Source of the DNA: an uncultured Acidimicrobiia bacterium
GTDB taxonomy: Bacteria > Acidobacteriota > Terriglobia > Versatilivoradales > Versatilivoraceae
Assembly (NCBI GenBank): GCA_963786955.1
Contig: CAWBAT010000003.1
Coordinates: 32,001 to 96,000, forward strand
Length of the DNA: 64,000 nucleotides
Direction of reading: 5' to 3'
The notes beneath the pieces are model-generated. The model was given only the letters and a program-made list of their open reading frames with translations. It did no database searches and was not told the DNA's origin. Position numbers and translations under genes: made by a program. Shown here piece by piece: positions 48,280 through 64,000 of the stretch. The first letter of the stretch is position 1, and each line of letters begins with the position of its first letter.

Positions 48280-49419
48280 CTATGGTTTTTCAGTATCAAC
48301 TCCATTGCCCATGATCTCCGCCAGAGCCACCGCGCGATGCTCGTCTAGGGATTTGTAACAGGCATCCACTAGTGCCATAGTCTTCAAGTTATCCTGGCCG
48401 CTAATTTCAGGGTCCCCATCCTCATAGACAGCCCGCATGAGCTGTGCCATTGTGCCCTCGAACGCATCCGGGAACCAACGTTCTTTCCAGCGTGGCTGAA
48501 AAATATAGCTGGGCTGCTGCCGGCTGGTAAAGTTGAGTGTGCTGGGACTTCCCTCGGGATAGTCGGGCCAGCCGATGGTTCCCCAGGCGGCACCCTTCGC
48601 TGCCCTCGACGCGCCATTGAATGGAAGGCGCGCCTAAGGCGCCGTCCCGAGTAGGCCCTGTCCAGACATCATCCCACGACGTGGCGCGCAGGCCATTAGC
48701 ATACTCAAGAATGTAAAGGGCAATGCCATCACGGTGTTTATGCTTAAGGCGCGGATCGGGGCAGGCACTGGCAAACACCCGCTCCGGATCACCAAAGAGA
48801 AAGCGAAAACAATCCAGGTGATGAATGCTTAAGTTCAGCAATGTCAGTCGATTATAGTTCTGCAGAAAAGTCTGCCAGTGGGGAATCGCACGCAGTTCGA
48901 TGGTGGCCAGCACCGGCGATCCCAGAATTCCTCGCTTCAGCAAGGTCTTTAAGGCCCGGATCGATTGGTCGTAACGCATGTTCTGGTTGACGCCCAGCTT
49001 CTTTCCGCTGTAGCTTCACAAAGTTGGACGATTTGACAGGCTTCGAGATAGTTCATCGCCAAAGGTTTTTGGGCGAGTATGGCGCGAATGTGCGGCCTCC
49101 GGACGGCTTCGCGAATGATGTCGTGCTGTAAATCTGGAGGGAAAGCGATATCGACGATTTCTACGTGGGGATCATCCAGCAATGTTTGCCAGCTGTCGTA
49201 TACCTTCGGGATATTTCGTATCCTGGCAACTGCTCTGGCATTCTCAGGTGAGCGGGAGGCCAGGGCAACGACATGGAAATCGGCATTCTTGTAGGCAACC
49301 AGGTGAATATCCCGCATGATAAAACCCGCCCCGATACAACCAATTCCGTAATCGGTTTTGGCGGGGAAATGCGGGAGATAATCCAGGTCGAGATCAATGG
49401 GTAAGAACGTTTCTGGCAT
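48280..49419 (-). CDS. Gfo/Idh/MocA oxidoreductase; frameshifted
   Basis: IGAGFI, AQKPLA, NQNMRYDQS, IHHLD and WFPDAF motifs. Confidence 0.88.
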
Positions 49420-49633: not shown

Positions 49634-51688
49634 TTAAGGGGGATAAGATCGCAGCCCAACCGCCTCCAGAGGCGAGACGAACATGCAGATAGTCTGCTCG
49701 ATGAACTCGCATTTCTGCTGATTTTTACGCTGGTAGCAACTTTGTCGGCGTCCGGTTCCATCCGCAAAAATGAGTGCCTCGTACTCCCCCTGGCCAAGGA
49801 AATCCAAGGACACTTCCAAATCCCGGGAGTCCCAATTCGTCATGCTGCCTAGATACCAGGTCTCGCCATGTTGCCGCGCTATCGTGATGTACTTTGCCGG
49901 TTCTCCATTGAGGACCTTCGTCTCGTTCCATACCGTTGGAACTCTTTCAATGAACTCAAAAGCGGGTTGGTCTTCATAAGCTGCCGGGTAATCCGCAAGC
50001 ATGGCCAATGGCATCTCATAGACAACGTACATGGCAAGCTGGCGTGCGCGGGTTCCCTGTGACATGGGTTCGATCATGCGTGGCTTGAACTCTTCACGTG
50101 TGGCGTTATGAAACGACCCGGGCGTGTAGTCCATCGGCCCAGCCAGCATTCGGGTGAAAGGGATAGTCACTTCGTGCTCCAGGGTTTGCCCGATCCCCCA
50201 CCTTGTGGTATTCCATGGCCAGAATGCCTTCACTAACCAGCTCATTGGGATAAGTCCGACGCAGTCCCGCGGATTTATGAGCGCCATGGAAATCCACAAC
50301 CAGATGGTGTTCGGCAGCCTTGCGCGCCATCTTTTCGTAGAAGTTCACCATCTCCTGATCATCCCGATTCATAAAGTCAATTTTCACACCCGATACGCCC
50401 CACTTCTCGTAAAGCGGAAAAGCGGTTCCATCTGCTCTCTCACAGCAGTCCAGATCATCCACAGGAGTATCCGGACTCCCCGGCGCTTGGCGTGGGCGAG
50501 GATATCCGGTAAATCGACTTCCGCGATTGGTCGTGTGATGTCATTAAAAGGCGACCAATTGCCGTCAATCAACATGTACTCCAAGTGGTGTTCGGCGGCA
50601 AAATCAATGTAATGTTTCAACGTGGCCGTATTCATCCCTGGCTCGAAGTCCACGCCTCTTTGCCAGACGGCCAGACCACCAGTCCCACGCGGCCTTGCCT
50701 GGCTTGATCCAGGACGTATCAGCCAGGGCACAAGGCGGGCTTAGATTCAGGATCAAGATAATTGGATTCGATGAGTCCGCCAGGGCGAGAGTCAATCATG
50801 AAAACCCGCCATGGTGATGCTTTTGGAGTTTTTCCCAGAACGATGTCCTCTGATCCGACTTGATCGCTACGGCGGCGGGACGAAATTAAGATGGCTGCTT
50901 GAGCCGACTTCCAGGTTCTCTCAAGCTCACTTTCGATAGCGACCGCGTCGATGTACGTTCCCATGGTCGAAGCGTCAAAGCTCGGCATCGGCGATAGCTT
51001 GCTCATCAAAGCATTTCGGACTCCGTAAACCGCAGATAAGTACATGCCGGCGTAATCCGTCAAATCAGCTTCAAGCAGTGCTACCCAAGGGCCTTTCGGG
51101 AATTCGATAAGCAAAGGCAATCCTATGGTCGAAGTGGGCTTGATTTGATCCAGAGTGACGCGATTAAAATGAGCTTCATAAGGAGTCGTATAAGCTTCCC
51201 AAATTAAGGGCATACACGAAGACATCTTGTGGAAAATAAAATCCTGTGTTCTCGGAAGAAAGGACAAATTGGTTGATCGCTTCCTGTTTTGGCAGGAAAT
51301 AGCGGAAGGCCACGCCCTCATTGTAGGCGCGGAAAATGAGGTCCAGTCGACGTCCTAGGGGTGGTTGCTCGCACAACGACACGATCAATTCGTTATAATG
51401 GTCACGGACAATGCGTTTTGCTCCAAACTCATTTTGCCAAGTTCCATCGTGAGAATGTCGCTCGGTTCCGACAATTTCGAAATCATGGTCAAGGGGTGGC
51501 AAATCTTTGAAATCCAGGCCCAACGGCGAGTCTGCCAAAACTAGGTTGGCCGATGTACGAGATCCGATAGTAGGCTCGTTCACCCGGAGGATAGGGCTGG
51601 AGGAGGGTTTTTAACTCGAAAGAGATGGAGTTGTTGCTCGTCCGGTGAAGTAACCGCTAGTGGCTGAAGAAGTGGTCTCTTGCATCAT
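49634..51688 (-). CDS. Glycoside hydrolase family 97; multiple frameshifts
   Basis: FRAYNEGVAFRY, SPWR, WIKPGKAAWDWW, YIDFAA, GVKIDF, DFHG, RTYPN, FTRMLAGPMDYTPG and QLAMYVV motifs. Confidence 0.9.
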
Positions 51689-52397: not shown

Positions 52398-55300
52398 ATG
52401 CTTACATACCCTCTCAATGTATTGTTTCAAGAAGTCGGGACACCAAGTTTGAACCGGCATATACGTTGGGTCTTCAGCTTGCTAGGGGTGTTGTTTTTCC
52501 TTCAGTCGGTACTGGTCGCTGATCTGTGGGCTGGGGAGACTCGTCCTAAACCCAAGCCCGCTTCTCTTTCTCGAGAGATTCTCCTCAGTGGCGAAGATTG
52601 GAGGCTGGGGGCCTTCCCCTTCGAAGAAGGCGAACGTCGCGGAGTTAACGCGGCAAAGTTTGATGACAGCGGGTTTAGAACCGTCAAAGTTCCAGGCGAG
52701 GTCCAGCTGCAAATTGGGCTCAAGGGGATGGATCTTTACTACCAGAGCAAAGAACTGACTCTGGTAAACGAGAAGGAATGGTGGTACCGCAAGCAGTTCG
52801 TCGCTTCACCAGAATCAGCCGGTAGAGTCGTGCGTCTGATCTTTGATGGGGTGGATTACTTTGCAACCGTCTGGCTCAATGGGGAAAAACTTGGAGAGCA
52901 TGAAGGCTGCTACGTCCCCTTTTCATACGACGTCAGTTCCAAGTTGAAATTTGGTGGCGAAAACCAGCTAGCAATAAAAGTCACTTGTCCCTGGGTTCCC
53001 AAAGGACGAGGCTTCCTGGAATATATGAAGGGAGAATGGACGTTGGTTTCTCCCGGGAATATCATGCGTTTCCCTTTCCCACCCTTTATTCTAGGTCCTT
53101 ACTGGGATGGGATCCCCGCCGCTGGGAACGCGGTTTTTCCAATGGGACTCTTTCGAGATGTGAAGTTAGTCGTTTCGGGACCGATCGTAGTCGGTGATCT
53201 TTTTGTAAACACGAAGTCGCTTAATCCTGATGGTAGTGCAACGCTCGGAATTTCCGGGGTGATCGCCAACTTTGGGAAGCAAGACGCCTCGGCTACATTA
53301 GATTTGAAAATTACGCCCGATAATTTCACCGGCGATCCCATCCCGTTACCCAGACAAAGTTTGACAGTTCATCCGGGCGAGAACAATTTTAGCGCAGAAG
53401 TCGTCGTCAAGACCCCTCAATTGTGGTGGACCTGGGATCTGGGTGCGCAGAACTTGTACAAAGCAACCGCCACGGTGGCCCCATCAGGGGGAAGTCCGGA
53501 GACGAAGGAAACGGTGTTTGGAATCCGGACTATCGCCCGAAAAGAAGATATGAGTTATTGGCTGAATGGCAAGCGCCTTTATCTAAAAGGCGCCTGGTAT
53601 CCGATGGGCGATTACTATGGAAGCAAACCGACACGCGAGACCTATGAAAAAGATCTCGAACTGTACAGGGCCGCCAACCTGAATCATCTGGTTGCCTTTA
53701 CGGTTGTTGAAAAACCAGATTTTTACGACCTGTGCGACCGACTCGGCATCCTTGAGTTCTTTGAGTTTCCTTTTGAACAATTTGGGCCGATAGAGGTTTT
53801 GTCTCACACCAACCCGCGCCGCGAGACTTTTGTCCAAGAGTCGCTTCGCCAGGTTCGACAGATCCTCATTCAGCTTCGAAATCATCCTTCAATCATCGTA
53901 TGGGCAGCTTTTGCCGAGGCTCGGATGAGTGGCAAAGGGTGGGGAGTCGGAGAGGAAGATTGGGAGCAGTATGGCTACAGCAAGTATTCGGAGGATATCG
54001 GCAAGCTGGTTGCAGAATTGGCTCCTGGAACCATCTATCATCCGAGCCTTTGTGATGTAGGGGAACAACACTTCTGGATGGGCAATTCCGGGATGGGAGT
54101 TACCGGAACTTATTTGGAACATTTCAATGCCAACACCGGATTTGTCTCCGAGTATGGAGGCATCGCCATTCCCGCTTATGAGAGTTTGAAAAAAATACTG
54201 TCGCCCGAGGACATGTGGTCTAACCAGAACTTGACTCTTCCTCAGTGGTACAACCTCCCAATCAATGTGCCGGCATACTCTTATCATACGAGTTTTGAGT
54301 ACAACGGTTTTGCGAGCGTGCTGAACCGGGTCCATAAGTTTGTGGATCGCAACATCAAGTCGGTTCAGGAACTCATTGATGACTCCCAACTCTATCAAGC
54401 ATTCATCTTTAAATATGCGACTGAAGGCTATCGCCGGAAGAAGTACAACTCCATCAACGGGACCCGGATCTGGGCCTACGGCGAAGTAACGCCCGGAATT
54501 CGTTTCAATTTTCTGGATTACTACCGGGTGCCCAAGATGGGTTACTACTTCCTGAAGAGAGCTCAGGAGCGATTCGCCATTAATTTTGCCTATGAAGAAG
54601 CCTTGGAGTCTCAGGTGTCCGGCAAGTCTCTGCGGATTCCTGTCTGGGTCATCAACGATTACCGGCAGGCGGTACCCTTTGAAGTTCACTGTGAAATTTT
54701 GGATTTACAGGGGAAAAAACTTTGGAGCCAGGACTTTCCCGGGACCGTGGACAGTGATGGAAGCAAGGAAGTCGGAATCGTCGATTGGGTAACGCCGGAT
54801 ACTCCTGGAGTTTATGTTCTGCGAGGCCGGGTTGTAGGAAAGGGAGAAGGGAATTGGGTCGCTGAGAATTCGACCTTCATCAAGGTGACTCCGAAACTTT
54901 TCGCTCGCCCCTTTAATGTGCTCCTCATCGGAGAACAAAAATACAACCCTCCGATTGCGGCCATGCTCCGTGCAGTAGGGGTTCATGTGGATGTGATTCA
55001 GGAGAACTCTGTCTTCGATCTTGCTCAGCTGCGGAATCCGGGAGAAATCCGGAAGCGGTATGACGTGGTTTGGCTGGCATGCTTCGATTCACTGTGGAAA
55101 ATTCTGGACAATGAAATGGCCGAGGGATTGAAACAGGCCATCCAAGAAGGAGTCGGGTTCATCCATACCGGCGGGCCAGGAAGTTTTCATGGAGGCTTTG
55201 GCCGGGCTGCTTTGCTGGATGTCCGGCCGCTGGCGGAGGTTTTGCCGGTATCGCTTCACAACCGCAACGATGCCGTTTTCGGGCAAGTCAAAGAAGCATA

Positions 55301-56074
55301 TCAAAACTTCTGCTGACATCTTGGCCCAGTCCTTCCTGGAGATTAAAGACATTCAAGTGGCAGGAGACGCAGGGCAAGGATTGAGTGACACTGAATGGAA
55401 GCTGTACGGCCTGCCCGGGTTTAATAATGTGGAATTGAAACCCGGCACAAGACAGCTACTCACAATCTCAGGACGGCCACTGCTGGTGATGGGGCAGTAC
55501 GGGAAGGGGAAGACTGTCGTTTTCACGGGATTCACCCCAGTCTATTCGGAAAAAAAATCTCCCTGGGACCCCAAACTTAACGCTCCGTATGCACTGGATC
55601 AGGAATTTGTTACCCATCCCGTTACTAAAGCCTATTTTGACCTGTTCGTGAGGGTGATTGCGGCTGCTACTAGCCGAGAAGCCAGTGGGAGATTTTGGCC
55701 AAATCCTAAGCATGCGGGAAAAGCCATTGTTTGAAATGCTGCAAGACCAGGCACCCGCAACGGTTAACACGGCGGATTCAGTCAAGGCTACGGCTTCGGG
55801 TAATCGGGCATCCACATCTTTGAATTTTACCAACGGAACAAAATACGCACGCTTGATTCGAGTCCGCGCAGAATGGGACGAGGCCCAGCCCGGGAACCCT
55901 TATCTCATCCTCTACAAGGACAATTACTTCGATTTAATGCCGGAAGAAAGCAAGTCGCTCGCTCTGGATCTATTCCTGCCGCCGGGCCAGGGAAGGCAGG
56001 TTCACGGCCGGCTGATTGTAGAGGGAAGCAATACGTCGCCACGGGAGATTCCAATCACAATCGATCGCAAGTAA
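52398..56074 (+). CDS. GH2-like (beta-mannosidase type) glycoside hydrolase with C-terminal GATase-like and Ig-like domains; 3' frameshifts
   Basis: FDGVDYFATVWLNG, PQLWWTWD, FGIRTI, FYDLCDRLG, RNHPSIIVW and FVSEYG motifs. Joins ORFs 52398, 55189 and 55658. Confidence 0.8.
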
Positions 56075-56273: not shown

Positions 56274-57332
56274 TCACTGTTTGATTCTCGAGAAGTTGAC
56301 TCGAATCCCGGTAGTGAAAAGGATGTCATTGTTTTTGCGGCCTTCAACCGGGTTGCTTTGGTACCGATCGCTGAAGGTCAATTGCCAGGCGAGCAACTTG
56401 GTCAAGGTAGTTACGGTACCGAACTCAAAATTAATTCGGTACTGTCCCAGATCTGTCATATTCGGGAAGATCCGGAGAGCCTGGGTAAGAGACGTAGCCT
56501 TAGAGATTTTATGGGTGAGAGTATTACCAAAAGATAACTCCGCTGAATTCCGGGTCAACGGGGTTGAGTATTTCTCACGATTGTAATCGGCTCCTCCGAG
56601 CAGATCCAATCGGGTCCGTTCATTCTTGATGACACTGTAGCCAAGGCCTCCTCCGATGACGAAGCGCAAATCCAAATCCTGGAACTTGTCATATTCATAA
56701 TTGTTGAAGATGTTGACGAACAGGCGAGGGCTCAAGTTTTTATCGTAGGCCCAACCTCCGAGGATGGCTTGGGCGGTGCTTGCCGTTGTCCCGTCGACCA
56801 GTTTTCCGGTTGCGTAGATCTGGTTAAAATAGGCTATGGTCTTGTCTGTGCGGGTTACGCGCGAAGCGTTCATGGCAGAGTTGATTGTCGTTGTGTCGGC
56901 GTTCCCGCGGGCAAGGCTGACGCCTAGATCCGCATAACCGGTCCAGAGGTTGAAGATACTGGGATGTTGCAGCCGTTCGTAGGCTTTTTGCTCATCCGTA
57001 TTGCGAATGGCAGAAACGCTGGCAAACGGGACGGATTCTCTCGTAGTCGGCGTGGTGACCTCCAGCTTATTGTCTTGAGTGTCTACTTTTCCCAGAACCG
57101 ACTTCCCGTCCGGTAAGACCACGGTTACGTCCTCATCCGAGGTAACCTGTTCGACTTTTTCCCACGGAATTGTGACCTCTCCAAATACGCTACTCTTAAA
57201 GGCAAGGCTGGCTCCATCCTTCTTCAGGATTTTTCCAGACACTCGGTCGCCGTTCTTAAGTGTCACTTGATCGGCCCAAACCAGGCAGACAAAAAAAGGC
57301 AAAATAGCAATCGACAGTTTTCTTGAAATCAT
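56274..57332 (-). CDS. DUF481 outer-membrane beta-barrel protein
   Basis: Signal peptide, DQVTLKNGDRVSG, W.G...LG....RGN, YEYDKFQDLDLR, GGGLGY, and a terminal beta-strand. Confidence 0.8.
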   Translation of the reverse strand: MISRKLSIAILPFFVCLVWADQVTLKNGDRVSGKILKKDGASLAFKSSVFGEVTIPWEKVEQVTSDEDVTVVLPDGKSVLGKVDTQDNKLEVTTPTTRESVPFASVSAIRNTDEQKAYERLQHPSIFNLWTGYADLGVSLARGNADTTTINSAMNASRVTRTDKTIAYFNQIYATGKLVDGTTASTAQAILGGWAYDKNLSPRLFVNIFNNYEYDKFQDLDLRFVIGGGLGYSVIKNERTRLDLLGGADYNREKYSTPLTRNSAELSFGNTLTHKISKATSLTQALRIFPNMTDLGQYRINFEFGTVTTLTKLLAWQLTFSDRYQSNPVEGRKNNDILFTTGIRVNFSRIKQ

Positions 57333-57674
57333 GATCAATGGCCTCACTTTGAAATTTGAAAAGCGGAATGGGTCACTAAATTCTAGATCAGGTTGTAGGA
57401 ATTGTACGTGGTTGGATGCGGATTACCTTCCCCCCCGAATGAATGGGGTCGAAGTCGATTAGTGGATTGTGATCGTGGCGAAGTGCGGATAACGGAACTC
57501 TATTCCAAAAAGTTGCCTACCAGGGAGAGAAGATTCGAAGGTGCAGGAATAATTAGAGCTGTTCGGACGATCCCCTGATGAACAGCCCAGCTCTCTTCCA
57601 AAACGATCATACGTTTTCTCATTTGTTGTACCCGGTTTGCAGATCATTCTGCAAACCCCTATTTGGCCTCAATC

Positions 57675-58397
57675 TCAGGCTGTGGCTGTCCGGATGGTTT
57701 TGCGACGACGAGCTCGCTTGATTCCATATTTCGTCATTTTGTTATAGAGAGTCCGACGTGGAATCTCCATGAACTGAGATGTGCGGGTAACATTCCAATG
57801 ATTCTTTTCAAGAATCGCAGTCAATTGCTGACGCTCAATCTCGTCAATCGTCCGCTCAGCCAAAAAATCGCTTACTGATATCGTCGGTACTTTCAGATCC
57901 ATATCAGGGAATTTCTGCCCATGCAGCAGCGCCTTCGTCACCAATTTCCCAAACCGAACCAATCTTTCTTTATCGAGAGAAGTGAATAATCGGGCATTCG
58001 TCGTGCTGTCGAGATAAAGAATCCCACAAAAGGATCCATCGACGCGCAAGGGAACGGAAGCCAACGAGAGGGTATCGATCCACTTGAACGCCGCAGTCTT
58101 TCGAAACTTCTCTTCCTTGCGAGTGTCGGGAATATAAATGACATTCGGATTGTTGCGGAGCTCTGCCAGATAATGGTTACAGACTACTTCGATCGTCTTA
58201 ATGGACGCCGGATCCCCTCCAATAAAGGCTCTCGGATCCAAATTTCCTTCTGCATCTAAGACGAAAATAGCGCCTCGCTCAGAGTTTGACATCTTGACAA
58301 CCACAGACAAGAGCTTCTGGAGCAGCTTCCCCGGGACTAAAATACTCTCTACCAAATCCGATATTTGATCAATCAGCTCAATTTTGGTTTCCTTCAT
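57675..58397 (-). CDS. GAF domain plus Fis-type HTH regulator (no AAA+ domain)
   Basis: GAF (ERGAIF, SLASVPL..GILYLDS, FTSLD) joined directly to TIDEIERQQLTAILEKNHWNVTRTSQFMEIPRRTLYNKMTKYGI. Confidence 0.8.
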   Translation of the reverse strand: MKETKIELIDQISDLVESILVPGKLLQKLLSVVVKMSNSERGAIFVLDAEGNLDPRAFIGGDPASIKTIEVVCNHYLAELRNNPNVIYIPDTRKEEKFRKTAAFKWIDTLSLASVPLRVDGSFCGILYLDSTTNARLFTSLDKERLVRFGKLVTKALLHGQKFPDMDLKVPTISVSDFLAERTIDEIERQQLTAILEKNHWNVTRTSQFMEIPRRTLYNKMTKYGIKRARRRKTIRTATA

Positions 58398-58671
58398 GGA
58401 CTAATTTCCCCCTTTTCTTCACGGAATTTGTGATTATCATATTCCCTGTGCAAGAACCGACACGGTATTATACCATTTGAACAGCCTCTCTTAAAAACAA
58501 CCCATTTCTTTGAAGACTCTTTCTTGATCGGAAAACTGAAGAACCAGGAGCTATTCGAAAGGAGAACGGAAGTAATGATCCGCGCCCCATAGTCTGCTAG
58601 ATCAACGTTCCGAGTACCCCGTATTTTACACCTAATTAACTTTCCACAATCAACAATAAAAAGGAGAAAAA

Positions 58672-59334
58672 ATGAGATCGAAAAACGTAGTTCTCATCAT
58701 TGGGTTAGTGTTTCTTGGAATATGTGCTAAAAATAGCACCTGTTTAGGTAAGGTAATAAGCACACAAGCGTCACCACTTTCTCGATACGCCGGACCGAAC
58801 TCGATCGGCCCGTCCAAGCTTTTTGCTGGGCCTGAATTGACACGATCTGCCGAATTGACAGTTCGAGACGGCTCTGAGGGGATTCCGCCACAAGCTCTTT
58901 TGATCAGAGATGGCTCCGAAGGGATTCCGCCACAAGCTCTTTTGATCAGGGATGGTTCGGAGGGGATTCCGCCACAAGCTCTTTTGATCAGGGATGGTTC
59001 GGAGGGGATTCCGCCACAAGCTCTTTTGATCAGGGATGGTTCGGAGGGGATTCCGCCACAAGCTCTTTTGATCAGGGATGGTTCGGAGGGGATTCCGCCA
59101 CAAGCTCTGTTGATCAGAGATGGCTCTGAGGGGATTCCGCCACAAGCTCTTTTGATCAGGGATGGTTCGGAGGGGATTCCGCCACAAGCTCTTTTGATCA
59201 GAGATGGCTCTGAGGGGATTCCGCCACAAGCTCTTTTGATCAGGGACGGCTCCGAAGGGATTCCGCCACAAGCTCTTTTGATCAGAGATGGCTCTGAAGG
59301 GATTCCGCCCGTTGCAAATTTGAGCATTGGTTAG
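58672..59334 (+). CDS. Secreted tandem-repeat precursor: signal peptide, leader and 11 x RDGSEGIPP
   Basis: RBS AAGGAG at 58661-58666 and signal-like N-terminus MRSKNVVLIIGLVFLGIC. Ten exact RDGSEGIPPQALLI units plus a terminal RDGSEGIPPVANLSIG. All DNA differences between units are synonymous in this frame. Confidence 0.85.
   Translation: MRSKNVVLIIGLVFLGICAKNSTCLGKVISTQASPLSRYAGPNSIGPSKLFAGPELTRSAELTVRDGSEGIPPQALLIRDGSEGIPPQALLIRDGSEGIPPQALLIRDGSEGIPPQALLIRDGSEGIPPQALLIRDGSEGIPPQALLIRDGSEGIPPQALLIRDGSEGIPPQALLIRDGSEGIPPQALLIRDGSEGIPPQALLIRDGSEGIPPVANLSIG
58864..59310 (+). repeat. 42-bp coding tandem repeat, 10 full units plus 1 partial
   Basis: Units start at 58864, 58906, 58948, 58990, 59032, 59074, 59116, 59158, 59200, 59242 and 59284. 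Near-invariant core gggattccgccacaagctcttttgatc. Confidence 0.97.
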
Positions 59335-59484
59335 ATCTGGGTTAGAGAGTTAGCTAATTGCTGGTAGAATCGCTCTCGTATTTCTTCAAGTCGCAGGGGC
59401 TTCCAGGAAAATCCTCACGTGGGGCAGGGAAGATTCCGACGAATCTTCCTTTGCCCTAACAAGGATATACGGGATTATCAGGGT

Positions 59485-60198
59485 ATGAGCGGACTCCAGC
59501 AGGCAATCGCAACGATTGGTCAGGTGATTCACTTTTTTCTCCTCCTGATTGGATTACGTCACCAACGGTTCCGGAGGTGTATTACCTTCTATTTATACCT
59601 ACTGGTCTCATTCATTTCCTCTATTGTGATTTCTTATCTTGTAAGCGAAAAAGAGTTGAGGAGGCAACTTTACTACCTCAAAGAGTTTCTATTGGATTTG
59701 ATTAAGATTGGAATGCTCATTGAGTTAAATAAGAATATTTTTGGTTTTTTCCCGAAAGTCCAACGGTCCAACCGAGCCTTATTTGGCATAACAGGCATCC
59801 TGTTTGTTGTCTACGCGTTTGCGTTGCCTGCGGAATCCAGAACTTGGTGGGGGTCTCTTCCCTTTGATTTACACTCTAAAGTGTTGCAAACTACGTGCTT
59901 AGCCTACTTGATGATGGTGTTTTCAGCGCTTTATTATCGCATTGAGGTCGCAACAGATTATAAGTTTCTGCTGGTTGGATACTTGTTTTCGCAACTGCCT
60001 GTTGCTCTAGGGTTTGCCTATGTTGCAATCGCTGGGGAGGCCGCAAGGAATAGAGTGAGTCTATTGAACTCTATATTCTTTGTGCTTGCAATGGTCGTCT
60101 GGACGAGAGTATATTGGGCAAATGATAAGGATACTGATTCCCCTGATATTATTGGCCGTGGGGTGGATCTTCCTGTTTCTTTTAGGGCGCCGGAATGA
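59485..60198 (+). CDS. Hypothetical ~7-TM membrane protein
   Basis: About seven hydrophobic segments separated by short basic loops (RHQRFRR, PKVQR), ending in VVWTRVYW. No enzyme motif recognised. Confidence 0.75.
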   Translation: MSGLQQAIATIGQVIHFFLLLIGLRHQRFRRCITFYLYLLVSFISSIVISYLVSEKELRRQLYYLKEFLLDLIKIGMLIELNKNIFGFFPKVQRSNRALFGITGILFVVYAFALPAESRTWWGSLPFDLHSKVLQTTCLAYLMMVFSALYYRIEVATDYKFLLVGYLFSQLPVALGFAYVAIAGEAARNRVSLLNSIFFVLAMVVWTRVYWANDKDTDSPDIIGRGVDLPVSFRAPE

Positions 60199-61198: not shown

Positions 61199-61986
61199 GT
61201 GAGTGAGTCGAGACTTAAAATATTGGTTGTCGACCATGAAGATGCGGAATTTTTGCGCGCTTCCGTAAGTCTCTTTGGCGAAGCGGGGTTCAATGTTGAC
61301 TCATGTTCCGATTGGGACGCCATGCAAAGGAAACTCAACCCCTCGGTTCGGACTACGGATATTCTGATTATGGACATTACCTGTTTTCAAGACCGGGATA
61401 GCTACCTCCTGTTGATGGAACTCCGGGGAAAAGAATATACCAAGGACCTGAAGATCATTCTCACAACAGATACCCTTGTGGAGGAGTTATTGCTGCGGAC
61501 TCGTCGAGAGTTGGGAATTGTCGCCTCGTTTAATAAGAAGCGGCCTGTAGAGGAACTACTCTACGTCCTCACGAACATTTTTCCGCCCAGCGGTGAAAAT
61601 TTGCGACGCTCCCGAAGGGTCCCGGCTCGTTTCTTGGTCCAATCCTCTTTGGAGGGTAAGACCAAAGTACTCTGTGCAAGGAATCTAAGTCGAGACGGTA
61701 TTTTCGTTGAAAACCATATCCCCGACCCGGTTGGAACTGCGGTTGAACTTTCGTTTACCCTCCCGGGAGAAGCTCCAAACTGCTTGTCAAAGCGAGAGTT
61801 GCCCGGGCGACTGCTGGCTCTCAAGTTACAAAACAAGAAGTATTCCCAGCCGGGAATGGGTTTGAATTTGTTGATGTTTCTGACGTTGACGCTCGCTTCT
61901 TGAAAGAATACTTGGAGCATGAGGAATTGAGAATCTTTGGTTCTGATGAAGAGCCCAGTCCAACGCAAGCCTACACTGGGACATAA
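61199..61986 (+). CDS. REC-PilZ domain protein; 3' frameshift
   Basis: REC (ILVVDHED, ILIMDI) and PilZ motifs RRSRR and NLSRDG. The tail VKARVAR...GFEFVDV is in the alternative frame, ending at TAA 61984-61986. Confidence 0.78.
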
Positions 61987-62208: not shown

Positions 62209-64000
62209 TCATTCCACAAGGTGACGTGGATCGATGGAAATTTGGGTTGTGCGTCGCTGGCAAATTCAACAATGGGCCAGGCTTGCGGAATTCGCCCGCC
62301 ATTTCACCGAGCAGATCCCGTTTGAAATACTGACCCGTTGCCGCCCGAGGGGTATTTCCTGAAAAAGACCACTTCAGGGTGAGCGCATTAATGTCAACTT
62401 CGATGTTCATATCGGCATAAGCACCAGTCTTGTCGAAGCCGAAATACTTCTGCCATGCTTCCAAATCCAGAATTAAGGGTGGCGTAACCAAGAAAGCCAA
62501 TTCAGCCCGCGACCCAATGGCTGTGTCTCTTCCATCACCTCGCCCCAATCTTTCTGATAGAGGTTTCCCTCCACGGTGTTGTCAGGATTAGAAAGGTCGA
62601 TAGCCTTGCCACAGTGGTAGAAGACATTGTCTAAGACTTTATTCCGGCGCGTCGTGCCGCCACGCGGTCCGACGATCCGCCCCTCGATGTTCCTAAATTT
62701 GATGCCAGCGTCCTGGGTATAGCCGATCAAGTTATGGGCGATAATAGTTTCGTCGCTCCCATCCACTGTGATCCCCCATCCGCCATGGGGAGACATGTTG
62801 GGTGAACCTCCGCCCTTGCCTTCGGTCGCCTTCCAAATGATGTTGTTATCCAGCATGTTGGGGAATTGCGAGGCTTCCAGATAGATTCCGCCTCGCAGAG
62901 TTTCCAGGTTGTCACCCATCACGTTCCCAGTGACCCTTGTATTCGTATTCTTATAGTCGAGCCAGATCGCTTCCGCATGGACCGTATGGCGAATGACATT
63001 GTTCCGCAACAGACAGTCCTTGGTTAATGTAGTTTGATGCCTCCCGTCTCCCAAGATAACTCCACGTCCTGATAACCCACTTGTTCGATGAGGTTCCCTT
63101 CGACAAGCGTATCCTGCACGCCCATCCCTGCTAGCCCGCACACACCGGCGTCAATGATGTGATTTCGGCGCACAATGCTGTGCCCAATAACCTCAGGGTA
63201 TTCCATATCCCAATCCTGCGCACCGATATCGAGTGCGACACTATTGGCGTGCCGCAGCACGCAATCCTCGAAGATCCAGAAATTCCCGCGGCTTGCTGAC
63301 ACCATTCCCCGCTGCGGGACCGGAAACGCGTTGGCAGCGTGTTCAAAGGCGATACCTTTCACCCGGATGTAACTCAGTCCCCGCGTCCGTGGGGCCAGTA
63401 TCTGCTCCTGGATTGTCAACTCGATCTCGTGCTGGGCAGGGTCAGCATCCCCGGAAAGCCGCAGATGGATTGTCAAGCCCGTCGTGCTCACACCAGAAGG
63501 CTCCGTCTTTCTTAGCGAGCTCCTGATAGAGTTCTACTTGCTCCAGCCGCTTCCCATCGACGAAAACCATCCCACGCCGAAGCAGGTGCTGTCTCAACTC
63601 TTCCGGCTTGGGCTTCAAGTACACACGGTCTTGCATAATGTTTACCATGCCAAAGGGGTTGTAGCCCTGGAAATCAAGGTCGTCCAGACGTCGCTCGTAA
63701 ATTTTCACTATGGAGCGAGGCGGCGGGTGAGGGCCCAACTTGTAACTTGTGGAAATTGCCCAACCGGTCTTCACTAGCCGAGAACCTTTGATCATCACAT
63801 TTGCGCCAGGAGCAGATTCGTAACTGATCATCTTGTCGGGGCCAGTGCCGCCGCGTCTTGGATCCACAAACTCCCGATAGACGCCACTCATGATCACCAC
63901 TCGCTCGCCGGGTTGCAGTACCTGTGCAGCTTTGTTTACGGTGGAAAAAGGCAGTTCTGTCGTGCCCGGGTTCGTGTCACTTGCGCGAGGGTTTCTATTG
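62209..64000 (-). CDS. Right-handed beta-helix repeat protein (DUF1565-like start); 5' end outside the window, frameshifted
   Basis: ASDTNPGTTELPFSTVNKAA, GVYRE, RGMVFVDG, ETGGIKLH, IWLDY and repeated xxNxI beta-helix turns. Confidence 0.75.

Follow-up and report, generated by a model that had tools for sequence, protein, structure and literature searches.

A putative multi-copy peptide precursor and its conserved four-gene cassette in Acidobacteriota

Why would a bacterial gene spell out one short peptide eleven times in a row, and what might become of its product? The question is raised by an open reading frame (ORF) at positions 58672 to 59334 of a 64,000-nucleotide (nt) stretch of DNA from an uncultured bacterium of the Acidobacteriota (GenBank assembly GCA_963786955.1, contig CAWBAT010000003.1, positions 32,001 to 96,000), the whole of which is referred to here as the window. 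An earlier reading of the letters alone (the sequence-only reading) had taken the encoded protein, here called the precursor, to be exported and cut into copies of a short peptide signal. Judged by its sequence features, the precursor is a member of an undescribed Acidobacteriota family of small, putatively exported proteins with 1 to 11 copies of the motif [DE]Gxxx[IV]PP. Its gene stands beside that of a seven-transmembrane (7TM) protein, and the reading preferred here, tentatively and at close to an even chance, is that the precursor is the multi-copy source of a peptide ligand sensed by that 7TM protein.

The repeat array is held constant at the protein level

The array runs in register from position 58864 (Table 1), and Tandem Repeats Finder reported it at 58870-59309 with a period of 42, 10.5 copies and 93% matches. 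The ten identical units and the final RDGSEGIPP described in the sequence-only reading were recovered, as were the residues LTV ahead of the first unit and VAN behind the last core, the latter opening the tail VANLSIG. Compared with the consensus, the DNA of the units carries nine distinct substitutions, and 9/9 are synonymous in the plus frame. They give rise to the codon variants R cga/aga/agg, D gac/gat, G ggc/ggt, S tct/tcc/tcg, E gag/gaa and L ctt/ctg, each of which the sequence-only reading had named. With 25% of the possible single-base changes synonymous, the chance of nine silent changes out of nine is approximately 0.254^9, or about 4e-6. The array in the window is held constant at the protein level.

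Core and spacer were compared by counting codon variety per aligned position inside each of 21 arrays. For the eight core codons ([DE]Gxxx[IVx]PP), 140 extra synonymous codons were found against 1 amino-acid change, in copies called with a regular expression that fixes D/E, G, P and P and hence four of the eight core residues. The spacer gave 37 extra synonymous codons against 53 amino-acid changes. Constancy at the protein level, first noticed in the window, is also a property of the homologues, and the proposed division of the unit into an invariant core, RDGSEGIPP, and a spacer, QALLI, is borne out in outline. Its boundary has to be moved by one residue: the position before the core is R in the window and A, T, N, I or V in relatives, which leaves DGSEGIPP as the core. 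The spacer varies in homologues, but not freely, since positions -4 to -2 are hydrophobic and rich in V, L or I; position -1 is mostly Ala.

A second frame is open across the same DNA. The antisense ORF at 58650..59327 (minus strand) spans 225 amino acids (aa), and 6/9 of the unit substitutions are silent there too, because its third codon positions are shared with the plus frame; homologues also have open antisense frames. That the antisense ORF is the true gene, or that the repeat is non-coding and its silent pattern an accident of the shared third positions, is nevertheless extremely improbable. The plus frame is preferred because it alone makes all nine substitutions silent, including changes that are non-silent in the antisense frame, and because it alone has a ribosome-binding site (AGGAG at 58662-58666, 5 nt ahead of the ATG at 58672). 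The signal-like N-terminus that it encodes is kept in 31 of the 31 family precursors examined with a hydrophobicity heuristic, and the orientation of the precursor relative to the downstream genes is fixed among relatives. Single-copy members, moreover, are found without an antisense repeat ORF. Both the strong ribosome-binding site and the signal-like N-terminus had been part of the sequence-only reading.

The N-terminal hydrophobic segment of the precursor has a Kyte-Doolittle (KD) value of 3.29, and the putative signal cut was placed by eye according to the -3/-1 rule. In bacterial lipoproteins the signal peptide ends in a lipobox, [LVI][ASTVI][GAS]C. The precursor has no canonical lipobox, because in its sequence L-G-I-C an Ile occupies position -1 to the Cys, and most relatives are without a Cys at that site. 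The leader that follows the predicted cut is kept only within the genus (P0001, P0002, L020). The precursor gene is present in a single copy in its own genome, and its product had no match in Pfam, NCBIfam or PHROGs.

Trust in the count of 11 copies is limited, because contigs break in the repeat and neighbouring genes are split. Contigs assembled over the locus from four public short-read runs all end within the repeat, with no joints, and neither confirm nor contradict 11 copies. Genes at 52398-56074, 62473-63999, 48422-49419 and 49634-51321 of the window are broken up into ORFs that adjoin or overlap one another: three for a GH2 glycosidase, two each for a GFO/IDH oxidoreductase and a GH97 protein, and three for a beta-helix protein that is a single 726-aa ORF in the closest reference genome, G002. 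The split genes look like the products of indel-prone assembly or real pseudogenes. In G002 (L004/L019) the precursor gene is frameshifted inside the repeat, P0003 being its truncated call, and in the metagenome contig L081 the precursor is broken by a frameshift in the same way; these frameshifts are either assembly errors or real decay.

A putative precursor family in a fixed gene cassette

In a word-based protein search the close relatives numbered only three, two of them with 6 and 5 units and the third with a frameshifted number. Six-frame searches gave matches in 11/24 other genomes of the same taxonomic family and in 0/16 genomes from ten other families of the class. One of the 11 matches, in G003, was rejected as a low-complexity false positive, the cassette being absent from that genome. 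A search for homologues with comparison of their copy numbers and cores had been proposed with the sequence-only reading; once run, it uncovered a family in which both vary. The relatives found in genomes are signal-bearing proteins of 3 to 10 units with the same build and different letters (ADGPEEIPPAAVLV, ADGPEPVPPTAVLI, DGAEPIPPVDRNI/DGAEPIPPVDRML, ADGGGPIPPAPTQI and NDGVDRIPP). Among 33 arrays at least 17 distinct cores were found, each uniform in its own array, with three middle residues varying between lineages; PGGRRIPP and EGGAAFPT are further forms. The repeat period ranges from 11 to 15 across the family, and a period of 14 residues is widely kept. The cores were also considered as substrates of a Pro-Pro endopeptidase, an idea that was set aside with P3' Pro present in some lineages only.

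Single-copy members are 44-55 aa long; a recurrent V-x-[AIV]-M junction leads into the motif, which lies at the very C-terminus (for example ...VQAM-DDGFPIPPK, ...VTVM-EDPLGPPHP and ...VQIM-DGGDPFPP...). In size and motif position they match small secreted pro-peptides and are unlike structural proteins. Close relatives differ widely in copy number. One genus has members with 3 and with 10 copies, a second genus members with 2, with 7 and with at least 8, and counts of 3, 5, 6, 9 and 11 were found around the genus of the window, whose precursor, as assembled, appears to be the most expanded member seen. One genome, G319, holds two complete cassettes with different cores, DGMTGIPP x3 and DGGSGIPP x2.

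The precursor gene keeps constant company. BLASTP comparison of all ORFs round seven genome loci identified three neighbours conserved in 6-7 loci and in several genera, with outer genes that differ between genera. In metagenome contigs the same neighbours were counted with hidden Markov models (HMMs) purpose-built from the three proteins. The 7TM gene directly precedes the gene for a helical-bundle protein with one transmembrane (TM) helix in 44 of the 50 loci with at least 760 nt upstream, the other 6 being orphans, and a divergent regulator was present in 24/24 loci with at least 1800 nt further upstream. In each of these 24 gaps lies a small plus-strand ORF with a hydrophobic N-terminus and the motif, in 2-9 copies in fifteen of them and in a single copy in nine. 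Hydrophobic N-terminus, motif copies and position in the cassette were thus found together in the window and in all 24 metagenome loci with enough DNA, and 10/30 other genomes of the same taxonomic family are counted with them. The genes form a fixed cassette, in the order regulator with GAF and helix-turn-helix (HTH) domains (divergent), precursor, 7TM protein and TM+helical-bundle protein. The sequence-only reading had reported no YcaO, radical SAM, ATP-grasp or lanthipeptide enzyme nearby, and none was found with Pfam and NCBIfam in 39-64 kilobases (kb) of the window; what it missed were the conserved partners themselves.

The spread of the cassette can be gauged from the helical gene, which was found in 10/30 other genomes of the window's taxonomic family, spanning 6/11 genera, and was not found in 14 genomes of the family's best-sampled genus. 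An even sample of 400 genomes of the phylum had it in only 2 others, both from one other family. A profile of the helical protein gave 9 loci in reference genomes (Acidobacteriota or Terriglobia metagenome-assembled genomes) and 141 relatives in metagenome contigs, the best 80 of 141 being kept for the locus counts given above. Orphan helical paralogues without 7TM protein, precursor and regulator were also seen (L023, L119, L120, L121; L032, L033, L039, L046-L048), and in three genomes such a paralogue coexists with a full cassette. No account of the family or the cassette was found in the open-access and bioRxiv full-text literature.

Sequence words from the 3.3-kb locus were matched in 20 listed runs, which belong to 17 studies and are mostly sediment metagenomes. 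One metatranscriptome library yielded a contig of 551 nt over 58352-58902 with 7 differences, covering the intergenic region, the gene start and the first unit, and a second contig over 59922-60277. In a second RNA library, parts of the regulator and the helical gene were covered; the uncovered parts of the locus carry no meaning in either library.

Table 1. Features of the precursor locus, in positions of the window
Feature	Position	Strand	Details
Precursor gene	58672..59334	+	220-aa ORF; ribosome-binding site
Predicted Sec signal peptide, aa 1-19	58672..58728	+	MRSK + 14 hydrophobic residues; I-C-A ahead of predicted cut
Non-repeat leader, 45 aa	58729..58863	+	Predicted signal cut to first unit
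Repeat array	58864..59310	+	10 x 42 nt (RDGSEGIPPQALLI) + 11th core RDGSEGIPP
C-terminal tail VANLSIG + stop	59311..59334	+
7TM protein, 238 aa	59482..60198	+	Conserved ATG; start set by alignment of 7 orthologues
Single-pass TM+helical-bundle protein, 240 aa	60122..60844	+	N-terminal TM helix; RRNExKVRS[DE]W motif; 77-nt overlap with 7TM gene
Divergent regulator, 240 aa	57675..58397	-	GAF (Pfam 1.8e-6) + Fis-type HTH, HTH_8 (4.8e-11); no AAA+ domain
Shine-Dalgarno-like GAAAGGAG + 5-codon mini-ORF (MIRAP-stop)	58557..58592	+	~100 nt upstream of precursor start, in 274-nt intergenic region
Stem-loop, ~16 bp	59411..59447	+	Between precursor and 7TM genes
DUF481 outer-membrane-type protein	56274-57347	-	Cassette flank; conserved only within the window's genus
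Response-regulator/PilZ-like protein	61199-61903	+	Cassette flank; conserved only within the window's genus

Several short elements lie between the genes. The mini-ORF ahead of the precursor recurs in two genomes of the same genus (MIRAP-stop, MTRAP-stop), and in other genera an AAGGAGG-like element is found at a comparable distance upstream; the site may be a leader peptide or a regulatory site. Rfam gave no match on 58300-59500. A block ATG[AC]GCTATATTC[AG]ACACGG...TAGCACA near the regulator start is conserved in four genera (L012-L015; window 58440-58480) and partly retained (…CCGACACGG) in the window's genus; the divergent genes may share it as their operator or promoter. Upstream of the precursor the window showed no sigma-54 -24/-12 pattern; a loose GG-N10-GC occurs in 2/7 loci, in inconsistent places. 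The 151-nt region between the precursor and 7TM genes folds at -51.6 kcal/mol (z = -2.5), and in 7/7 loci checked a strong hairpin, though not of the same sequence, occupies this place, these folds having no shuffle control. Such an arrangement would let the precursor transcript exceed the downstream message. The overlap of the 7TM and helical genes at 60122-60198 recurs with the same 77 nt in other genera and in metagenome loci (L012, L050, L051), which suggests translational coupling of the two genes.

In 12 metagenome loci scanned (L035, L036, L045, L049, L050, L051, L054, L057, L058, L059, L081, L086), the helical gene is followed on its own strand by an OppB/OppC-type permease pair. L037 shares the ORF layout of L036, the permease scan having covered the latter and not the former. 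In the genome loci L012 and L015, permease-like ORFs, recognised from N-terminal sequence only, also follow the cassette. Hybrid PAS histidine kinases lie downstream in four loci, and DUF62 is also among the downstream genes. Three related single-copy loci (L097-L099), with peptides that end in ...GPPHP or ...GPPKP, have an S9 prolyl oligopeptidase downstream (~970 aa, with a PD40 propeller and tetratricopeptide repeats (TPR)), which is a candidate post-proline processing enzyme. For some lineages the permease and S9 neighbours may point to uptake of peptides or to cleavage after proline, or they may reflect local synteny.

The partner proteins and a lineage with a basic core

The start of the 7TM gene was set at the conserved ATG; a listed GTG start at 59419 lies inside the hairpin and upstream of the orthologue starts. 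The 7TM protein is 37-89% identical to its orthologues, the helical protein 45-92% and the regulator, whose orthologues adjoin the precursor in 7 genome loci, 58-95%; in the BLASTP comparison of the seven loci the first two ranges read 38-89% and 46-93%. A full HMMER scan of 1.84 billion representatives returned 234 relatives of the 7TM protein, of ~230 aa. No Pfam match was found in 91 members of this 7TM family, and none in NCBIfam or PHROGs. In the ESM Atlas the protein falls in unnamed Acidobacteriota clusters (0.95-0.96), and PDB sequence profiles gave nothing meaningful for the 7TM and helical alignments (best E 0.07 and 0.02).

The AlphaFold2 model of the 7TM protein has seven helices, with a predicted local distance difference test (pLDDT) of 88.5 and a predicted template modelling score (pTM) of 0.83. 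The top 50 VIA-align matches of the model were all 7TM domains of the G-protein-coupled receptor (GPCR) type, with Z 10.2-12.2, a root-mean-square deviation of ~4 A and 180-200 residues aligned; as Z lies below ~13, the GPCR-like predicted fold is taken as a lead. The strongly basic character of loops 1 and 3 would, by the positive-inside rule, place the N-terminus outside and the C-terminus inside. The periplasmic loops of the model are 1-7 residues long, and helix 3 carries a conserved polar line of Y64, K67, E68, D72, K75 and E81. A predicted complex of the 7TM protein with precursor residues 61-106 scored 0.01 against a mark of 0.32, in a run without controls and with a low-confidence model of the 46-residue fragment, and carries no weight on either side of the question of binding.

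Candidate enzymatic functions for the 7TM protein were considered and rejected. The residues of an AgrB-like His/Cys pair, of the CPBP pattern (EExxxR ... H) and of an exosortase-like Cys/Arg/His triad are not conserved across the family; H131 is replaced by Q, and C139 by I, V or L, in the wider family. The only PADLOC matches were a two-TM 'Effector' model, marginal at E 4.5e-4 over 54 residues of the 7TM protein, and a match confined to the HTH of the regulator, and a defence-system reading was not adopted.

The helical protein has relatives in at least 124 database clusters, all labelled hypothetical, and had no match in Pfam, NCBIfam or PHROGs. Its AlphaFold2 model has a pLDDT of 74.3. 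VIA-align found generic four- or five-helix bundles only (vinculin tail, Z 13.9; talin; designed bundles), Foldseek gave no match at E <= 0.001, and the ESM Atlas held no cluster above 0.78.

One lineage, represented by the loci L036 and L037, is the only one with a basic core, PGGRRIPP, which replaces the acidic DGxE type and whose copies differ by silent changes only. Its 7TM protein carries the substitutions K67A, E68Q, L71Q and K75A in helix 3, together with S47D and E118A. Of the positions that are otherwise invariant, 19/60 are changed in this 7TM protein, radical changes included, against 7/71 in the helical protein, all conservative, and 12/111 in the regulator, mostly conservative. 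Loss of the 7TM lysines in the lineage with the basic core is what a direct, partly electrostatic contact between peptide and receptor would predict.

Weighing the ligand reading against its rivals

In the preferred reading, each step of which, from export and cleavage to the pairing of peptide with 7TM protein and the signalling that follows, we infer, the gene would encode a Sec-exported pro-protein with 11 tandem DGSEGIPP octapeptides, each behind a short hydrophobic linker. After export and removal of the signal, the array would be cut in the periplasm or outside the cell at the junctions between hydrophobic linker and acidic residue, perhaps after Pro-Pro. Cutting would release many copies of one short peptide, and the multiple copies would raise the dose per transcript. 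The released peptide would then act as the lineage-specific ligand of the adjacent 7TM protein (predicted N-out, C-in), which would signal jointly with the cytoplasmic helical-bundle protein, with an output that feeds back through the GAF+HTH regulator. A precursor of a peptide ligand or pheromone fits better than a structural protein because of the small size and C-terminal motif of the single-copy forms and the identical copies kept by selection. The lineage-specific cores, the paralogous cassettes with different cores, the labile copy number and the co-varying membrane partner argue in the same direction. A more specific version has the cassette as a diderm peptide-pheromone system with a stand-alone 7TM receptor of GPCR fold, in which core and outer receptor half co-diversify into pherotypes and 1-11 copies set the dose; this version is possible but doubtful.

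A number of points weigh against a ligand of the 7TM protein. Neither dibasic nor other known processing sites occur in the linker, and cleavage after Ile-Arg or Met is not to be expected of type I signal peptidase. Because Acidobacteria are diderm, a released DGSEGIPP (~770 Da by arithmetic) would need to pass the outer membrane or else act in the periplasm only. Because the copy-calling expression fixes half of the core, diverged or lost copies are under-counted; copy spacing is regular nonetheless, and inspection by eye picked out only two degenerate copies, both terminal (L045, L051). The hydrophobic linker and the kept 14-residue period would also fit a folded or docking repeat. Foldseek likewise found GPCR 7TM domains as the best matches of the 7TM model, at E ~0.1 and TM-scores of 0.4-0.5, none reaching E <= 0.001, and VIA-align Z values below ~13 are possibly generic for helical bundles. 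The co-variation comes from one lineage with two near-identical contigs, and the 7TM protein, to judge from the identities given above, evolves faster in general than its two partners. The GAF regulator could sense something unrelated. Finally, the RNA-library contig is not proof of transcription, because DNA can occur in such libraries.

Some of these points would sit well with a protein that is never cut: a periplasmic repeat protein serving as multivalent partner, tether or scaffold of a membrane complex, or as an extended Pro-rich spacer, with the repeats as binding modules. In favour of such a protein are the conserved period and the always hydrophobic linker, a cassette without a fixed protease gene, an array without recognisable processing sites, and 7TM and helical partners that are both membrane proteins. 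It is unlikely all the same, as 9/24 cassettes encode a single motif in 44-55 aa and leave too little after signal removal, copy number runs from 2 to 11 among close relatives, the period shifts between 11 and 15 across the family, and the 7TM model exposes almost no periplasmic loops. Quite unlikely, in turn, is a route of the RRNPP type, in which an Opp/Dpp-type permease would bring the peptide, once released outside the cytoplasm, back into the cell and the regulator would bind it with its GAF domain, leaving export, processing or another task to the 7TM and helical proteins. Permease genes are absent from the window and many other cassettes, so that the pairs in 12 metagenome loci and the permease-like ORFs in two genome loci, which would suit import, may be lineage synteny, given that other cassettes carry DUF62, hybrid kinases, S9 peptidase or the response-regulator/PilZ-like gene downstream. 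We know of no peptide-binding GAF domain, and in the charge-flipped lineage it is the 7TM protein that changed radically and the regulator that changed little (12/111). The import route does draw support from the divergent cytoplasmic regulator with ligand-binding domain and HTH that adjoins the precursor in 24/24 loci, and from the Rap-Phr precedents with tandem pheromone copies (PMC11343458, PMC5199041). As in RRNPP(A) systems such as Rap-Phr, NprR-NprX, PlcR-PapR, Rgg-SHP and AimR-AimP, a small exported pro-peptide stands beside a regulator gene, here a putative receptor only; membership in that family fails because no TPR receptor is present, the regulator being GAF + HTH_8 and the other two proteins having no Pfam match.

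A modified peptide (RiPP, one made on the ribosome and post-translationally modified) or a bacteriocin, with the 7TM and/or helical protein as an unrecognised maturation enzyme, exporter or immunity protein, is very unlikely. A multi-core precursor beside conserved proteins of no assigned function would suit such a pathway, the 7TM protein has a conserved polar and charged intramembrane face (K67, E68, D72, K75, E81, D129, H131, K133), and the S9 prolyl oligopeptidase of L097-L099 could be a processing enzyme. No known RiPP enzyme family was found in 39-64 kb of the window or in the cassette, however: beyond the families named above, LanB/C/M, PatA/G and a heterocyclase are missing too (Pfam, NCBIfam). 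H131 and C139 are not kept in the wider 7TM family, the fold of the helical bundle is generic and not enzyme-like, and the core, anionic, rich in Gly and Pro and without amphipathic character, is unlike known bacteriocins. RiPP leaders do not typically include a Sec signal peptide. The cyanobactin precursor PatE resembles the array in that short conserved elements alternate with variable segments and a D-G-x-E-like element recurs; it differs in that the N-terminus here is Sec-like and not a recognition leader, and in that the conserved element, not the variable one, is under strict selection.

The ligand reading has its closest bacterial precedent, by analogy, in the tandemly duplicated Phr propeptides of Bacillota Rap-Phr systems. 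In two reports (PMC11343458, PMC5199041), these pro-peptides are short, have a signal sequence for Sec export and place the active motif near the C-terminal end; one gene holds several copies of the putative pheromone, identical or diverging, the cores are lineage-specific, and a cytoplasmic regulator gene is adjacent. The present family differs in its diderm phylum, in having up to 11 copies of an eight-residue acidic/Pro-Pro core, and in its fixed partners, with an Opp-type permease adjacent in some lineages only. Yeast alpha-factor and fungal Kex2-processed proteins, with which the sequence-only reading had compared the gene alongside the cyanobactins, share the signal, leader, identical copies separated by spacers and identity at the protein level (on such proteins, see PMC7329392). 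Here too a signal peptide is followed by three or more repeats of one peptide. To that extent the comparison stands, and it goes no further: the boundaries read ...PPQALLI/RDG..., with a single R and no KR or RR, relatives having A, T, N, I or V there; the spacers are hydrophobic, not acidic-dibasic; the organism is bacterial, without a Kex2/Ste13 pathway; and neither PatA/PatG-type proteases nor RiPP enzymes accompany the gene.

The 7TM protein invites two further comparisons. Its model, like eukaryotic GPCRs, has seven helices and a probable N-out/C-in topology, and its VIA-align matches are GPCR-type throughout the top 50, but the Z values, and likewise the Foldseek scores, lie below the level specific among helical bundles; the protein differs in a sequence identity of 4-14%, in having no sequence-level match to a solved chain, no G-protein machinery and very short loops. 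Agr systems likewise cluster a small pro-peptide gene with polytopic membrane protein(s) and a transcription regulator, and fall into specificity groups. No AgrB Pfam match was found among the 91 family members, in contrast, and the His/Cys pair of AgrB is not conserved; the 7TM protein ends ~25 residues past helix 7, with no HisKA or HATPase domain, and the precursor has an N-terminal signal peptide and no Cys for a thiolactone.

Multi-copy precursors of secreted peptides are a known kind of gene, and what is new here is the phylum and the partner proteins; should the 7TM protein turn out to be the receptor, the novelty would extend to the kind of system. Whether or not the signalling reading holds, strict selection on an eight-residue motif inside arrays, together with copy numbers of 1 to 11, makes an unusually clean case of uniformity maintained by selection on the protein rather than by homogenisation of the DNA. 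The cassette also provides a first functional context for three families without a Pfam or NCBIfam model, namely ~234 7TM clusters, at least 124 helical clusters and the pre-peptides. The putative ligand DGSEGIPP is short enough for synthesis, natural specificity variants exist, and the natural charge-swap pair points to K67 and K75 as candidate receptor residues. Descriptions of peptide signalling are good for Gram-positive bacteria and very poor for diderm phyla, and to our knowledge almost nothing has been learnt of how cells communicate in Acidobacteria, a phylum dominant in soil and sediment. A 7TM pheromone receptor in these organisms would, if true, add to bacterial cell-cell peptide signalling a class of receptors distinct both from histidine kinases and from cytoplasmic receptors of the RRNPP type.

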